NCBI GenBank assembly: GCA_027340875.1
Contig: DAIENX010000046.1
Location: 1 to 15,045 of the forward strand
DNA: 15,045 nucleotides
Source: Elusimicrobiota bacterium
GTDB taxonomy: Bacteria > Elusimicrobiota > Elusimicrobia > Elusimicrobiales > UBA9959
Reading direction: 5' to 3'
Under the pieces are notes generated by a model. It was not told the origin of the DNA and did not search any database. It saw only the letters and a program-made list of their open reading frames with translations. This document shows positions 291 through 8,269 of this stretch, piece after piece. Each line of letters begins with the position of its first letter. Position 1 is the first letter of the stretch. The position numbers and the translations under genes were made by a program.

Positions 291-1355
291 TCACGCCGAA
301 CTTTCGGGGGCCGGGAACCAGCCGCGCGTACGCACGCAGGCGGAGCAGACAGACAGCATCACCGGCACCTCCACCAGCACGCCCACCACGGTAGCCAGCG
401 CCGCGCCGGAGCCGGGGCCGAACAGCGCTATCGCCGTGGCGACGGCCAGTTCGAAGAAGTTGCTGGCCCCTATAAGCGCGCCTGGAGCGGCCACAGGGTA
501 TTCCACCTTGAACCTGCGCATCAGCCAGTAGACCAGGCCGGAGTTGAAGTAGACCTGCAGCGTTATCGGCACGGCTATCAGCAGCACGTGCGAGAAGCGG
601 GACGTGATGTTCTCCGCCTGGAAGGCGAAGATGAACACCAGCGTGGCCAGCAGGGCCAGCACGCTGACCGGGTGGAACTTCGGCATAAAGGCCGTCTCGA
701 ACCACTCTTTCCCGCGGGACCTGACCAGCGCCGCGCGCGTCAGCGCCCCGGCGGAGAGCGGGATCACGATGAAGATGAACACGGCCCACAGCAGCACGGA
801 GAAAGGCACCACCAGCGATGAGGCGCCGCTGACCAGGAACTTCACTATAGGCGCGAAGGCGGCCAGCATGATGAGGTCGTTCACCGCCACCTGCACCAGC
901 GTATAGGCCGGATCGCCGTCGGTCAGATAGCTCCAGACGAAGACCATGGCCGTGCATGGCGCGGCGGCCAGTATTATGACGCCGGCTATGTACTGCTCGG
1001 CCAGCTCGGGGCCTATCCACGGCGTGAAGACGTGCTTGAAGAAGACCCAGCCGAGCAGCGCCATACTGAACGGCTTCACCAGCCAGTTCACGAACAGCGT
1101 GATAAAAAGACCCTTGGGCTTTCTTCCGACGTTATGGAGCGAGCCGAAGTCTATCTTGAGCATCATCGGGTAGATCATCAGCCACAGCAGCACGGCTATC
1201 GGGATATTGATGTGCGACTCCGTGCCGAATTCCATGCGGCGCAGCCAGTCGACAACGCCGGGCGCCGCCTTGCCTATCAGGACTCCCACGGCCATGCAGG
1301 CGGCCACCCAGACCGTAAGGTACCGCTCGAAAACGTTCAGTCTCTTTTCGCTCAT
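291..1355 (-). CDS. acr3: Arsenite efflux transporter, Acr3 family (354 aa)
   Basis: Family motifs FERYLTVWV, LLWLMIYPMM, NWLVKPF, AAAPCTAMVFVW, GASNFFELAVA and VVGVLVEVPVML. Highly hydrophobic. 4-bp overlap with arsC. Confidence 0.96.
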   Translation of the reverse strand: MSEKRLNVFERYLTVWVAACMAVGVLIGKAAPGVVDWLRRMEFGTESHINIPIAVLLWLMIYPMMLKIDFGSLHNVGRKPKGLFITLFVNWLVKPFSMALLGWVFFKHVFTPWIGPELAEQYIAGVIILAAAPCTAMVFVWSYLTDGDPAYTLVQVAVNDLIMLAAFAPIVKFLVSGASSLVVPFSVLLWAVFIFIVIPLSAGALTRAALVRSRGKEWFETAFMPKFHPVSVLALLATLVFIFAFQAENITSRFSHVLLIAVPITLQVYFNSGLVYWLMRRFKVEYPVAAPGALIGASNFFELAVATAIALFGPGSGAALATVVGVLVEVPVMLSVCSACVRTRGWFPAPESSA

Positions 1356-1768
1356 ATCGCCAGTCCTTTCACGAATTCCTTTATCTCGTCGCGGACGCGG
1401 CGGTATACCGGCAGCGCGGCTTCGTCGGAGGCGCCCTTGCCCGCCACCGCGCCAGGGTCGTCGAAGCCCCGGTGGAGCTTTTTCCCCTTTCCCCAGTAGG
1501 CCGGGCAGGTCTTTTCGGCGTTGGAGCAGACCGTAACTACCAGATCGAATTCCATATCCTTTAACTCGGCCACGCCCTTAGGACGGTGGGAGGAAATATC
1601 TATCCCCGCCTCGTACATCACCCTTATCGCGCGGGTATCCACGGCATCCCCCGGCGCCGTGCCGGCGGAGAACGGCTCGACTTTGCCGCCAAGCAGCGCC
1701 CTGGCCCAGCCTTCCGCCATCTGGCTGCGGCACGAGTTGCCGGTGCAGAGAAAAAGTATCCTCTTCAT
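1352..1768 (-). CDS. arsC: Arsenate reductase, thioredoxin-coupled LMW-PTPase type (138 aa)
   Basis: P-loop CTGNSCRSQMAE, redox Cys pair VTVC...CP, and FDDP motif. Lies between arsR and acr3. Confidence 0.93.
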   Translation of the reverse strand: MKRILFLCTGNSCRSQMAEGWARALLGGKVEPFSAGTAPGDAVDTRAIRVMYEAGIDISSHRPKGVAELKDMEFDLVVTVCSNAEKTCPAYWGKGKKLHRGFDDPGAVAGKGASDEAALPVYRRVRDEIKEFVKGLAI

Positions 1769-2046
1769 TTTCCCCTCTTCAATGCCGGCAGCAGCCAGCT
1801 CAGCGCGGCCCGGCTTTCCCCCTTAGGCGAAGCCGGCAGCCTGCAATGCACCCAGCGGCCCAGCTTGCGCGTCTCTATCAGGCCGGCGGCCTCCAATATG
1901 GAGAGATGCTTGGAAACGGTGGAAGGAGCGAGTTTAAGCCCTTCGGTAACATGGCAGACGCAGAGCTCCCCCCGCTTGAGCAGCTTCAGTATCTTCAGGC
2001 GGGTCTCGTCGGCGGCCGCCTTGGTTATCCTCAGTATGTCCTGCAT
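1765..2046 (-). CDS. arsR: ArsR/SmtB family metalloregulatory repressor (93 aa)
   Basis: ADETRLKIL...ELCVCH...STVSKHLSILEAAGLI..RKLGRWV winged HTH with an alpha3 ELCVC metal-binding motif. First gene of the ars operon, 4-bp overlap with arsC. Confidence 0.92.
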   Translation of the reverse strand: MQDILRITKAAADETRLKILKLLKRGELCVCHVTEGLKLAPSTVSKHLSILEAAGLIETRKLGRWVHCRLPASPKGESRAALSWLLPALKRGK

Positions 2047-2061
2047 ATGCCCCCGGGCCTG

Positions 2062-2088
2062 ATTTCGTCATTTCGCCACATAACGAAT
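2062..2088. promoter_or_regulatory. Candidate ArsR operator (imperfect inverted repeat)
   Basis: TTCGTCA (2064-2070) -N10- TAACGAA (2081-2087; reverse complement TTCGTTA), a 6/7 match. Also a direct repeat ATTTCG(T/C)CA at 2062-2070 and 2070-2078. Located in the arsR/hgcA spacer. Confidence 0.5.
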
Positions 2089-2092
2089 TATA
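2087..2092 (-). promoter_or_regulatory. -10 box (TATAAT) for arsR-arsC-acr3
   Basis: ATTATA on + reads TATAAT on -, 40 nt upstream of the arsR ATG. No strong -35 is evident. Confidence 0.6.
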
Positions 2093-2093
2093 C

Positions 2094-2099
2094 TATAAT
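2094..2099 (+). promoter_or_regulatory. -10 box (TATAAT) for hgcAB
   Basis: Perfect TATAAT followed by 7 nt and then ATG 2107. Only a weak -35 (TTTCGC, 2071-2076, 17-bp spacer). Confidence 0.6.
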
Positions 2100-2106
2100 A
2101 TCCTTC

Positions 2107-3087
2107 ATGACAGGGAAAGACAGCAGTACCGCCGCCGCGGCCGCCTCAGGCATTCCCTCCGTTACCCGGGAATACGGCCCGGCCGACCGGCTTGCCTCCT
2201 GGAAGGCCCGCTGGGGCATTGGCCGCATGAAGATGCGGATAAAGCCCGGCCTCTACGCGCTGGGCTCGCCGGGCCCGGACTCCCCGGTCTTCGCTTCCGC
2301 CAACTACAGGCTGAGCTTCGACGCTCTGCGCTCTTCGGTCAAGGACAACGCCTGGCTGCTGGTGCTGGACACCAAGGGCATCAACGTCTGGTGCGCGGCC
2401 GGCAAGGGCACTTTCGGCACTATGGAGCTTACCCGCTCCATAATGGAGAGCGGCCTGGAGAAACTGGTGGCCAGGAAGGAGATAATACTGCCCCAGCTGG
2501 GAGCTCCCGGAGTGGCCGCCCACAGGGTCAGCGCCTATACCGGCTTCAGGGTCGTCTACGGCCCAGTGCGCGCGGCGGATATTCCGGAATTCATGGCCGC
2601 CGGGAAAAAGGCCACTCCGGAGATGCGGCTGGTCCGCTTCGGCTTCGCTGACCGCGTCATCCTCTCCCCGCTCGAACTGGTCTATTTCGCCAAATTCCTG
2701 CTTCCGGCAGCGGCGCTGCTCTATTTCCTCGGCCTGAAAGCGGACGCGCTGCTGACCATCGCCACGCTTATTTCCGGAACCCTGCTGGTGCCAGCCCTGC
2801 TGCCCTGGCTGCCCGGCCGCGCATTCGCCGTAAAGAGCGCCGCCGCCGGGGCGCTCGCTCTCGCCGCGGTTTACCCCTTCCTTTCGCAGGACCTGCTGCA
2901 CGCCTGCGCCCGCGCGCTTATCTATCTGCCGGCGGCCTCGTTCATAGGACTGCAGTTCACCGGCACCTCCACCTACACCTCCCTCTCGGGGGTAATGAAG
3001 GAGATGCGGTTATCCCTGCCGGTACAGGCGGCGAGCCTGCTGGCCGGGATAGTACTGCTGGTACTGGGGGGGTTCCTATGGGCCTGA
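2107..3087 (+). CDS. hgcA: Mercury methylation corrinoid protein HgcA (326 aa)
   Basis: Cap-helix motif GINVWCAAGKGTFG (Cys codon TGC 2392-2394, residue 96), plus PGLYALG, ANYRLSFD, LPQLGAPGV, YGPVRAADI, and a C-terminal multi-TM domain with LPGRAFAVK and FTGTSTYTSLSGVMKEM. Followed by hgcB. Start set at ATG 2107 rather than 1846, which would overlap arsR. Confidence 0.97.
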   Translation: MTGKDSSTAAAAASGIPSVTREYGPADRLASWKARWGIGRMKMRIKPGLYALGSPGPDSPVFASANYRLSFDALRSSVKDNAWLLVLDTKGINVWCAAGKGTFGTMELTRSIMESGLEKLVARKEIILPQLGAPGVAAHRVSAYTGFRVVYGPVRAADIPEFMAAGKKATPEMRLVRFGFADRVILSPLELVYFAKFLLPAAALLYFLGLKADALLTIATLISGTLLVPALLPWLPGRAFAVKSAAAGALALAAVYPFLSQDLLHACARALIYLPAASFIGLQFTGTSTYTSLSGVMKEMRLSLPVQAASLLAGIVLLVLGGFLWA

Positions 3088-3374
3088 AATACCTGCGCGG
3101 TGTCTCCACGCTGAAGCTCGACGAGGCGAAGTGCACCGGCTGCGGAATGTGCGTGCAGGTCTGCCCTCACGCGGTGCTGGCGATGAACGGGCGGAAAGTC
3201 CGCATAACCGACATCGACCTCTGCATGGAATGCGGCGCCTGCGCCGGGAACTGTCCCGTAGAGGCGCTGAGCCTTAAGAAGGGCGTAGGGTGCGCCGCCG
3301 CCGTGATAACCGGCTTCATCAAGGGGACGGAACCGGTCTGCGGCTGCGGAGAGGGCGGGGACGACTGCTGCTGA
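3078..3374 (+). CDS. hgcB: Mercury methylation 2x[4Fe-4S] ferredoxin HgcB (98 aa)
   Basis: Two CxxCxxCxxxCP motifs (CTGCGMCVQVCP, CMECGACAGNCP), the HgcB signature C(M/I)ECGAC, conserved GVGCA and terminal CC. 10-bp overlap with hgcA. Confidence 0.96.
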   Translation: MGLKYLRGVSTLKLDEAKCTGCGMCVQVCPHAVLAMNGRKVRITDIDLCMECGACAGNCPVEALSLKKGVGCAAAVITGFIKGTEPVCGCGEGGDDCC

Positions 3375-3391: not shown

Positions 3392-3513
3392 ATGAACTCA
3401 CTCCCCGGGCTAAAGCCCGGAGTTTCCCGCATTGCAGAGAACTTGGCCTCCGCTTCGCTCCGGGCTGCCAGAAATCCCCGGCCTTAAAAGACCGGGGATT
3501 TCTGGCAAGTTTG
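3392..3513 (-). mobile_element. Non-autonomous IS200/IS605-family derivative (PATE/MITE-like), about 122 bp, no ORF
   Basis: Minus strand reads TTTAA|CAAACTTGCCAGAAAT-CCCCGGTCTTTTAAGGCCGGGG (left-end hairpin) ... GAAA-CTCCGGGCTTTAGCCCGGGGAG-TGAGTTCAT| (right-end hairpin). Subterminal hairpins, an AT-rich target 5' of the left end, and no target duplication. Confidence 0.65.
3466..3507. repeat. 16-bp perfect inverted repeat (left-end hairpin of the element)
   Basis: TGCCAGAAATCCCCGG (3466-3481) -ccttaaaaga- CCGGGGATTTCTGGCA (3492-3507). Confidence 0.95.
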
Positions 3514-3522
3514 TTAAAGGAT

Positions 3523-3548
3523 ACGCCGCCCCCTCCGGGCGGCGTTTT
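3523..3548 (+). terminator. Rho-independent terminator between convergent hgcAB and the ABC-F gene
   Basis: ACGCCGCCC-cctcc-GGGCGGCGT-TTT: a 9-bp stem with a short U-tract on + and a weaker tail on -. Confidence 0.7.
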
Positions 3549-6531: not shown

Positions 6532-6762
6532 CTAGCTCTTTACGGTGAAACCCTTGGTCTTAAGGACCGCCGCGACCTCCTCCAGGTCTATGCCCAGGCG
6601 CCCGCAGCCGGCGCGCACGGTCATCTGCTTGCCGTGGGACTCCCTCATCACGGGGTTCTTCACCCCCATGAAGCCCAGCGCGAAGAGTATGTCTATCAGC
6701 TCCGGGTAGTCCGTCGTCAGGTCGTACAGCGTCCTGTCCAGGTCCACGATCTTTGCGGCCAT
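6532..6762 (-). CDS. DUF1858 domain small protein (76 aa)
   Basis: Pattern DLDRTLYDL...YPELIDIL..LGF....NP.MR...GK.MT...G....GID. It lies 1 bp downstream of the DUF438 gene, the usual pairing. Confidence 0.75.
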   Translation of the reverse strand: MAAKIVDLDRTLYDLTTDYPELIDILFALGFMGVKNPVMRESHGKQMTVRAGCGRLGIDLEEVAAVLKTKGFTVKS

Positions 6763-6763
6763 A

Positions 6764-7921
6764 TCAGTCCACCAGCCTTTTTTCGCCTTTTATCTTCTGC
6801 AGCTCCGTTATATCCTGCGTCACTTCCAGGGAACCCAGGTATTTCCCTCCTTCGCCGCGCAGCGCGAAGTAGCGTATGTGTATCACCCTGCCCTTCATGT
6901 TTATCCAGAACTCCTCGAAGTTCTTCGTGCCGGTCCGGAAGCCGTTAAGTATCTTCTCGACGGCGGCCAGGCTCTTCGGCGGGTGGCAGTTCTGCACCTT
7001 TCGCCCTATCACCGACCGGGCCCGCAGGAAGATCCTGTCAGAGCCCTCGGAGAAATACCGCACGGTGTCGTCCGCGTCCACGAAGGTAAGGTCCACCGGC
7101 AGCGTGTTGAGCAGGGAGGTCAGCTCCCCCAGGGACAGGCTGCCGCTCGGCAGGCTTACCGCGGCCCCCGCGATAGAGGCGGTATTCTGGGCTATGTCCA
7201 GCGCCTCCATCGTTCCCGCCGGCGGCGGGATGAAGACGTAGCCGGTCTGCGCGCTCTCGCGGAAGATCTCGGCCCAGTCGGAGGCCTTCAGCTTCTCGAG
7301 GGAGGTCGGGAAAAGGATGTTCTCCTCCTTGAAGATCATCGCGTCTATCTCCTCCAGCAGCGCCAGCGCCGCGGCCGGGAAGTCCGCCGGGGAGGCCGAG
7401 GACGCTTTTTTGAACATCTCCCGGACCTCGTCGTGCTTGCCCCACATCACCTTGGAGGGCCCGTAGAAGCCGGCCTTCTCCAGGTACGGGAACAACAGGT
7501 GCTCCTTGCGCTCGTAATGTTTAATGACCGCCCGCAGTTCTTCCACTACGCTCCTCAGGCCGGCCGTGTCCCCGCCCGCCTTAATGCCGGGAAGCAGCGC
7601 CTTGCCCGCCTCGACGCGCTTCCTGATCTCGGCGTTCTCCGCCTTGAACAGCGCCACCGGGTGGGCCGGCGACTCCGGGTCGGCCATGTTCTTCTCCAGC
7701 GCCCCGTCGAACAGCAGCGCGTGCACGTTGCAGAAGCGCTTTATCTCGTCCGGAGTGACGCCGTCGGCCAGCAGCGACTGTTCCAGGTCGAAGATCTCCT
7801 GCGACGTGACGGGGCCTATCTCCGCCTCGAAGCGGTTCTTCGCCTCCGCGAGCGGCAGCCCCTTGTGCAGCTCGCCCAGTATCTCCTTCAGCGCCCTTTT
7901 TCTGTCAGGTCGTCCGCCCAT
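6764..7921 (-). CDS. DUF438 + hemerythrin-like + PAS (PAS_10) domain protein (385 aa)
   Basis: N-terminal LHKG...EI..LEQ.L...G....EI.RFCNVHA (DUF438). Central HPV..F..EN, HY.RKE.LLFP, MWGKHD and MIFKEENILFP (hemerythrin-like). C-terminal LPVDLTFVD..D.VRYF...RIF.R...IGRKVQNCHPP (PAS_10). Confidence 0.85.
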   Translation of the reverse strand: MGGRPDRKRALKEILGELHKGLPLAEAKNRFEAEIGPVTSQEIFDLEQSLLADGVTPDEIKRFCNVHALLFDGALEKNMADPESPAHPVALFKAENAEIRKRVEAGKALLPGIKAGGDTAGLRSVVEELRAVIKHYERKEHLLFPYLEKAGFYGPSKVMWGKHDEVREMFKKASSASPADFPAAALALLEEIDAMIFKEENILFPTSLEKLKASDWAEIFRESAQTGYVFIPPPAGTMEALDIAQNTASIAGAAVSLPSGSLSLGELTSLLNTLPVDLTFVDADDTVRYFSEGSDRIFLRARSVIGRKVQNCHPPKSLAAVEKILNGFRTGTKNFEEFWINMKGRVIHIRYFALRGEGGKYLGSLEVTQDITELQKIKGEKRLVD

Positions 7922-7930
7922 AGGTCCTCC

Positions 7931-8269
7931 TTACGCCTTTATCATTATCAGCGCCATCTTGAAGCGCTTGGCGGCCTTCAGCGCGTGCGGCCTGCGGGCC
8001 GGCATGATGATGAACTCGCCGGCCTTGACCCTGTGCGGCTTGCGGTCTATCAGTATCTCGGCCTCGCCGTCCAGAATCTCCACCATCGCGTCGAACGGAG
8101 CGGTATGCTCGGAAAGCCCCTGGCCCTTGTCGAAGGAGAAGATGGTCACTGTGCCCATCTGCTTCTGGATAATGGTCCGGCTCACCACCGCGTCCTTGTC
8201 GTAGGCGACCAGGTCCTTCGCCTTCAGGGTCCGGCCTGTCACGTCTTCCTTTTTTTCGATCCTTTTCAT
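7931..8269 (-). CDS. Cupin domain protein (112 aa)
   Basis: FSFDKGQGLSEHTAPFDA.V.ILDGEA...G....MPA..PHAL.A..FKM.L single cupin barrel. SD GGAGG at about 8274-8278. Confidence 0.85.
   Translation of the reverse strand: MKRIEKKEDVTGRTLKAKDLVAYDKDAVVSRTIIQKQMGTVTIFSFDKGQGLSEHTAPFDAMVEILDGEAEILIDRKPHRVKAGEFIIMPARRPHALKAAKRFKMALIMIKA

Follow-up and report, generated by a model that had tools for sequence, protein, structure and literature searches.

Divergent hgcAB and arsenic-resistance genes share a predicted ArsR operator in Elusimicrobiota, where hgcAB and arsM alternate at one operon slot

Why do some microbes keep the mercury-methylation genes hgcAB, and what controls hgcA? The first is a long-standing question, and the second limits the prediction of methylmercury formation. 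Both are raised by a locus in an Elusimicrobiota bacterium (GTDB order Elusimicrobiales, lineage UBA9959; assembly GCA_027340875.1, here G000, 92% complete), in which hgcA and hgcB stand head-to-head with an arsenic-resistance operon. The window (i.e., the whole stretch of DNA analyzed) is the entire contig DAIENX010000046.1 (G000:C40; 15,045 nucleotides [nt]). A first-pass annotation of its sequence had placed acr3, arsC, and arsR opposite hgcA and hgcB across a 60-base-pair (bp) spacer, and the coordinates proved exact. All five genes are intact, with overlaps of 4, 4, and 10 nt within the arms, and none has a second close copy in the G000 assembly. We found that a predicted ArsR operator spans two opposed predicted promoters in this spacer and that, across the family, hgcAB and the methyltransferase gene arsM are alternatives at one ars-operon slot, almost mutually exclusive. 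The features of the divergon are as follows.

291–1355, minus strand: acr3, arsenite efflux permease, 354 amino acids (TIGR00832, 379 bits; cut-off 283)
1352–1768, minus strand: arsC, arsenate reductase of the low-molecular-weight protein tyrosine phosphatase fold, 138 amino acids (best family TIGR02691, 118 bits; Pfam LMWPc, PF01451)
1765–2046, minus strand: arsR, "type A," with ELCVC motif, 93 amino acids (NF033788, 86 bits; cut-off 55)
2047–2106: spacer between arsR and hgcA, 60 bp
2064–2071: extra operator half-site, kept in type A divergons
2072–2087: predicted ArsR operator, a TTCG-N8-CGAA palindrome (motif conservation and position weight matrix)
2087–2092, minus strand: predicted −10 box TATAAT toward arsR
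2094–2099, plus strand: predicted −10 box TATAAT toward hgcA, 7 nt before its ATG, with a predicted leaderless mRNA
2107–3087, plus strand: hgcA, 326 amino acids, cap-helix motif with Cys96 intact (NF040863, 385 bits; cut-off 275)
3078–3374, plus strand: hgcB, 98 amino acids, 2[4Fe-4S] ferredoxin with C-terminal Cys-Cys (NF040864, 119 bits; cut-off 99)

How widely is the divergent layout kept? All compared genomes are incomplete assemblies, in which a missing match is not proof of absence. HgcA scored above its cut-off in 27 of 401 sampled Elusimicrobiota genomes and in 25 of the 80 genomes of the family. The first-pass annotation had called for a survey of hgcA neighborhoods, and this bears the layout out: arsR lies head-to-head with hgcA in 24 of the 25 hgcA-bearing family genomes (G000 included) and in the sister-family genome G391. 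Because 24 other genomes repeat it (23 of the family plus G391), the arrangement in G000 is not an assembly artefact. The 13 hgcA loci from farther afield in the phylum all lack this layout, though 8 have ars genes close by. Among the best 80 of 595 GTDB hgcA loci, the two from Elusimicrobiota are both divergent; after 7 of the remaining 78 were set aside for having less than 600 bp upstream, the 71 informative loci included no divergent arrangement and 18 with a co-directional arsR beside hgcA, as counted with a custom hidden Markov model (HMM) that may miss distant regulators. The earlier statement that ars genes near hgcAB are usually co-directional therefore holds, and in the samples searched the ars-hgc divergon looks specific to the order. 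Among the matches listed, the closest HgcA records that carry a title are likewise from Elusimicrobiota, and the window flanks (a major facilitator superfamily [MFS] gene and an M42 peptidase gene) agree with hgc-type and arsM-type loci alike. A different divergon, with arsR opposite acr3-hgcA-hgcB, occurs at L035 (genome G072). At L055 (G385) hgcA is apparently frameshifted near its 5′ end, and the hgcA at L046 (G335), which has no ars neighbors, contains an in-frame TAG close to where the match ends.

Could a single ELCVC-type ArsR act on both arms, as the first-pass annotation had proposed? Of 80 metagenomic arsR homologues, 65 have an exact TTCG-N8-CGAA palindrome in the 110 nt preceding the gene. 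In a position weight matrix built from 47 sites, with two metagenomic hgc divergons left out of training, 2072–2087 scores 30.9 bits and is the top site of G000; the runner-up (18.7 bits, on contig C24) lies inside a coding region, and the genome-wide scan of G000 returned no wider ArsR regulon. With sigma-70 promoter geometry as the reference for assigning boxes, the operator spans the predicted arsR start and, on the hgcA side, promoter positions −35 to −20. The gap between TATAAT and the hgcA ATG is 6–7 nt in all six type A genomes. At 6 nt from the operator, a TAnnnT box in reverse orientation was present in both of the hgcA-facing contexts versus none of 58 other non-redundant contexts, and relaxing the offset added one further context (L332). 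Across G000, distances from TATAAT to ATG peak at 6–8 nt (29, 14, and 12 sites, versus 1–6 at 0–5 nt), while control hexamers give a flat distribution; therefore, leaderless starts look common in this genome. Control of both arms by one ArsR appears well supported by these comparisons, because the clade-typical operator covers both predicted promoters and the hgcA-facing −10 box is found only where hgcA is.

An alternative hgcA −10 box from a simple promoter scan (TATACT, with TCGTCA 18 nt upstream) was not retained, as the box at 2094–2099 has the conserved spacing to the ATG, and a 9-8-9 repeat (2063–2088) was dropped for the 16-bp core after the survey of arsR homologues. Five weak type A matches in genome G287 (L058 and L061–L064) belong to a repeated intergenic element of about 90 bp or more and have no ars neighbors. 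A minus-strand ATG at 2081 falls within the operator, 5 nt past the −10 box that faces arsR, and begins a frame of 16 codons that overlaps the beginning of arsR; the equivalent short frame in G391 and G323 terminates on the arsR ATG. It is possibly a leaderless upstream open reading frame coupled to arsR, or else a by-product of the palindrome. The co-directional loci L328 and L329, in the order arsR-hgcA(-hgcB-acr3), carry the same operator type as the window.

Is the wiring tied to one regulator? Nineteen family genomes carry a different, longer ArsR (type B), 36–51% identical over the matched part. Its operator is a 26-bp palindrome enclosing both −10 boxes, and in several genomes the ends of the palindrome could double as the two start codons, separated by 20 bp. 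The hgcA-facing box is TATTAT or TAGTAT in 20 hgcA-facing copies and in a remnant in genome G423; its first base is T in these, whereas the 12 copies that lack hgcA all have A. The hgcA-linked type B arsR genes do not form one clade (approximately unbiased [AU] test, p = 0.003). The HgcA proteins of the order do form one clade, within which types A and B interleave; thus, as judged from this tree, the head-to-head wiring has outlived the replacement of both regulator and operator. Nine three-mismatch type B matches in another family (f2) had no ars or hgc neighbors and were dropped as chance. Type B loci such as L033 have an IscA/HesB-like gene in the interval from arsR to arsC and, after acr3, a phosphonate-binding-protein-like gene; these genes occur in both hgc and arsM loci, and neither is present in G000.

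What would the type A regulator sense? The window ArsR has three cysteines (Cys29, Cys31, and Cys68) and a palindrome, predicted by comparison, at its own promoter, as expected of autoregulation. The Cys29/Cys31 pair, the CxC of ELCVC, is conserved in 81 of 81 rows of a cysteine census that included the window protein. For a third ligand, neither the R773-type cysteine (Cys37) nor the C-terminal cysteine of the clade is present in the window protein, and Cys68 may substitute; two cysteines reportedly suffice in R773 ArsR. Cys68 recurs in all six other type A divergons, in 1 of 20 co-directional regulators, and in five loci without hgcA, and the latter two counts rule it out as a general mark of hgc-linked ArsR. 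It lies 39 residues from the first cysteine, which agrees, by published numbering rather than alignment, with ArsR2 of Pseudodesulfovibrio mercurii ND132. A PDB search returned distant ArsR-family structures only.

Is there precedent for arsenic-responsive hgcA? According to a preprint on ND132 (bioRxiv 10.1101/2022.10.17.512643), As(III) and As(V) raise hgcA transcripts and an ArsR-like gene is co-transcribed. ND132 has hgcAB and no arsM, gave no detectable mono- or dimethylarsenicals, and on knockout became more sensitive to As(V) but not to As(III). In lake data, arsR-like genes are reported to be associated with lower hgcA expression. The ND132 response and the lake association count toward ArsR control of hgcAB.

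How does hgcAB relate to arsM? The first-pass annotation had noted that the window holds no arsM, and the whole G000 assembly has no ArsM (NF008823) over the cut-off either (best 46 bits versus 263). This absence matters more than could be seen from the window, because arsM and hgcAB alternate at one slot across the family. ArsM is above cut-off in 28 of the 80 family genomes: 24 have hgcA only, 27 arsM only, 1 both (G430), and 28 neither. The exclusion is significant in a Fisher test (p = 4e-5) and in a within-genus permutation (1 overlap observed versus 9.5 expected, with 0 of 100,000 permutations as low), tests that overstate it since kin are not independent; counting three ArsM-like fusions under the cut-off gives 4 overlaps versus 11 expected (p = 7e-5). 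The gene rpoB was found in 47 of the 80 genomes, not including G000, and on a tree of 44 of them the hgcA and arsM states interleave (G358/G373 and G256/G409), with 6 and 10 changes; phylogenetically independent pairs there come at best to 4 to 0 (median p = 0.125). Complementary sisters in three further genera (g14, g25, and g54) were spotted post hoc.

The alternation is visible in gene order as well. The typical operon of arsM-bearing genomes runs arsR-arsP-arsE-arsF-arsG-arsM-(hesB)-arsC-acr3, with arsM just upstream of (hesB)-arsC-acr3 and mostly after arsG or arsE; in hgc-bearing genomes an hgcBA-arsR cassette sits at the operon point that arsM holds in relatives. Of 26 other hgc loci, 14 have arsG or arsE as the next gene after hgcB and none has arsM there; relative to arsR, arsM is on one side and hgcAB on the other. 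G423 carries arsM together with an hgcA remnant lacking most of the 5′ part. The pattern has limits: an ArsM-like gene directly follows hgcB in G177 (243 bits versus the cut-off of 263), and the phylum-wide overlap is 0 of 27 versus 47 of 401 (p = 0.058). Outside the phylum, ArsM occurs in 11 of 78 hgcA-bearing genomes, which does not differ significantly from the 1 of 25 in the family (p = 0.28), and two loci have the order arsR-arsM-hgcA (L136 and L179); coexistence in other lineages rules out a universal exclusion. In a different order, a radical S-adenosylmethionine (SAM) gene and hgcAB come after acr3 at L034 (G178), and arsM does so at L276 and L277 (G090 and G269, same genus as G178), perhaps a further instance of a shared slot. 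At L251–L273 the large operon is headed by a third ArsR type, which has a conserved palindrome of its own, TTGCCAAAT-n-GCCAAA, beside a TTGACA −35 box.

How might the divergon work? In the reading we favor, with a probability of roughly three in four, one ArsR dimer would bind the palindrome at 2072–2087, overlapping two back-to-back predicted promoters. ArsC enzymes reduce arsenate to arsenite and Acr3 permeases export arsenite; here ArsC would supply the arsenite that Acr3 removes. Arsenite at Cys29 and Cys31, perhaps with Cys68, would free ArsR from the DNA, as the ELCVC class suggests, and RNA polymerase would initiate near 2080 for the left arm and around the hgcA ATG for the right arm, yielding a leaderless hgcAB mRNA. 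Both arms, arsR-arsC-acr3 and hgcA-hgcB, would be switched on together by arsenite, and such co-induction appears likely. Several observations weigh against this reading. In type A, the promoter toward hgcA shows only a weak match at −35 and lacks an extended −10; with 1 nt between the two −10 boxes, competition between polymerases could uncouple the arms. The window ArsR is short (93 residues versus a clade median of 121) and lacks the C-terminal cysteine found in 69 of the 81 census rows; therefore, the inducer may differ. TIGR02691 is the best family for ArsC, yet the score of 118 bits is under the cut-off of 174, as is that of the G391 orthologue; the position of arsC between arsR and acr3 is kept in relatives, and the context fits an arsenate reductase. 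G335, the sole family exception, has hgcAB without ars genes nearby, and one of two hgc copies in G417 has the operator without arsR. For type B, the T/A state is represented by only two independent pairs on well-supported branches, and the box base nearest hgcA can travel with hgcA by recombination. ArsR might govern the ars arm only, with hgcAB constitutive or lowered when the leftward promoter fires. The operator indeed lies directly over the leftward start but 7–22 nt upstream of the rightward −10 box, and the polymerase footprints of the two boxes overlap; we nevertheless regard such one-sided control as improbable, given that the predicted hgcA −35 to −20 region is under the operator and that the type B palindrome encloses both −10 boxes.

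What, then, does HgcAB do there? The hgcBA-arsR cassette occupies arsM's slot, and HgcAB therefore most likely belongs to the arsenic response as one of its inducible arms; mercury methylation would be a by-product. We advance only tentatively, at less than even odds, the stronger proposal that HgcAB natively handles arsenic as a cobalamin-dependent, non-homologous stand-in for ArsM or its antagonist, and that mercury methylation is an arsenic-switched side reaction; part of this proposal is that hgcAB and arsM have repeatedly traded places and that hgcAB was wired to two ArsR operators through purpose-built leaderless promoters. In the stand-in version, which extends the favored reading by adding the substrate, HgcAB would methylate arsenite with a SAM-derived methyl group and either system would suffice per genome. 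The near-absence of overlap in the family, the common slot with arsG or arsE but never arsM after hgcB, the interleaved states on the rpoB tree, and the arsM kept beside a deleted hgcA in G423 all fit; SAM is the methyl donor of HgcAB and methylcobalamin methylates As(III) enzyme-free (the latter per a review), so the replacement is chemically plausible. We nonetheless judge it rather unlikely. The first-pass annotation had linked the native role to metalloid detoxification or methylation; a methylating role sits poorly with the lack of detectable methylarsenicals and of added As(III) sensitivity in ND132 and with the coexistence of hgcAB and arsM elsewhere: the 11 ArsM-bearing genomes outside the phylum, the arsR-arsM-hgcA operons, the ArsM-like gene of G177, and G430 with both. 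The independent pairs are also few, and G000 has no arsP homologue for methylarsenite export.

HgcAB could instead act otherwise on arsenic; for example, its Co(I) form might demethylate methylarsenicals and pass As(III) to Acr3, in which case excluding arsM would prevent futile cycling or competition over SAM. Such an activity fits the exclusion, the coupling to Acr3 without ArsP in G000, and the ND132 results (no methylarsenicals, a knockout less tolerant of As(V)), and cobalt-dependent dehalogenation by HgcAB has been reported. It is nonetheless a long shot: operons with both arsM and hgcA would be futile cycles. A more serious competitor, though still short of even odds, is that hgcAB was inserted once beside arsR, that arsM was lost on that haplotype, and that the haplotypes were then swapped by recombination in the flanks, HgcAB lying outside arsenic chemistry and merely borrowing an inducible promoter. 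The single HgcA clade of the order, in which one genus's HgcA is nested in another's, is expected of cassette transfer; allele swaps at one locus would give exclusion through linkage alone; and other roles have been proposed (a halomethane substrate, or methylmercury as an antimicrobial). Such a history does not readily explain two distinct regulator-operator pairs, each with its own hgcA-facing −10 box, or the failure of the hgcA-linked type B arsR genes to form one clade. Moreover, arsM and hgcAB flank arsR on opposite sides, so a single insertion would leave arsM in place, and sister genomes in three other genera are complementary too.

Why does the locus matter? Arsenic control can be approached there directly through a defined predicted operator, a pair of predicted promoters, and natural variants that differ at single bases, and the swap with arsM offers a specific candidate function along with matched pairs of close relatives carrying one gene each. 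Arsenic methylation by HgcAB is a testable hypothesis, and if the favored reading is true, exposure to arsenic would directly drive these bacteria to methylate mercury.

How much of this was already known? The presence of ars genes beside hgcAB and the ArsR-linked, arsenic-responsive expression of hgcA are. An ArsR-family gene adjoins hgcAB in ND132, as in the window; ND132 arsR2, however, is co-transcribed with hgcAB, encodes a four-cysteine site unlike ELCVC, and has no other ars gene adjacent, whereas the window ArsR is an ELCVC protein with three cysteines that heads an arsC-acr3 operon on the opposite strand, with an identifiable shared operator. Metagenome-assembled genomes likewise have acr3, arsC, arsM, or arsR flanking hgcAB (PMC7438021, PMC11984097, and PMC10349881); the available text of these papers describes proximity alone, with no divergent layout, operator, leaderless promoter, or arsM exclusion, although the figures could differ. 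With canonical arsR-arsC-acr3(-arsM) operons under alpha-3 ELCVC regulators, the window shares the gene set, the CxC, and an autoregulatory palindrome just after the −10 box, and differs in its bidirectional operator region, its C-terminally short ArsR with Cys68, and hgcAB in the place of arsM. HgcAB and ArsM share SAM as the methyl donor and, in the family, operon slot and regulators, but they are unrelated proteins; HgcAB is membrane-bound and cobalamin-dependent, and an arsenic activity for it is hypothetical. The available parts of PMC10083202, PMC6950371, PMC11588087, and 10.64898/2026.04.26.720869 were also compared. We found neither a divergent hgcAB/arsR pair nor hgcAB-arsM mutual exclusion in print, although Fig. 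6 of PMC7438021 and Table S4 of bioRxiv 10.1101/2022.10.17.512643 could hold a divergent example. New here are hgcAB in place of arsM in this family and a conserved divergent variant of a known association.

Does G000 have what HgcAB needs? The window HgcA passes its curated HMM cut-off and has the cap-helix motif, defined as N(V/I)WCA(A/G)GK. HgcB passes its own, with two 4Fe-4S motifs, a position adjoining hgcA, and the C-terminal cysteines, which are reported as important. G000 encodes 10 B12-binding domains and a cobalamin riboswitch; no match to CobS was found in the assembly, and B12 is therefore probably scavenged. Homologues of arsP, arsE, arsF, and arsG are likewise absent from G000.

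Two hairpins had been described as terminators bracketing the divergon.

239–268: hairpin with A/T tails on both sides, a predicted bidirectional terminator between the MFS gene and acr3 (z = −5.9 and −5.8 on the two strands)
3523–3548, plus strand: GC hairpin followed by four T, a possible hgcAB terminator (z = −2.65)

The left one folds on either strand and is a convincing bidirectional candidate, whereas the right one, which only four T follow, is less so, with 5 of 200 shuffles folding equally well. A simple terminator scan called neither. Between hgcB and the right hairpin, at 3400–3510, lie two strong hairpins resembling repetitive extragenic palindromes (z = −5.3), one arm of which has a single partial match elsewhere in G000, on contig C66; they could terminate or stabilize the hgcAB mRNA. 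Farther along the window, at 6532–8269, DUF1858, DUF438-hemerythrin-PAS, and cupin genes follow in series, a possible module for sensing oxygen or nitric oxide.

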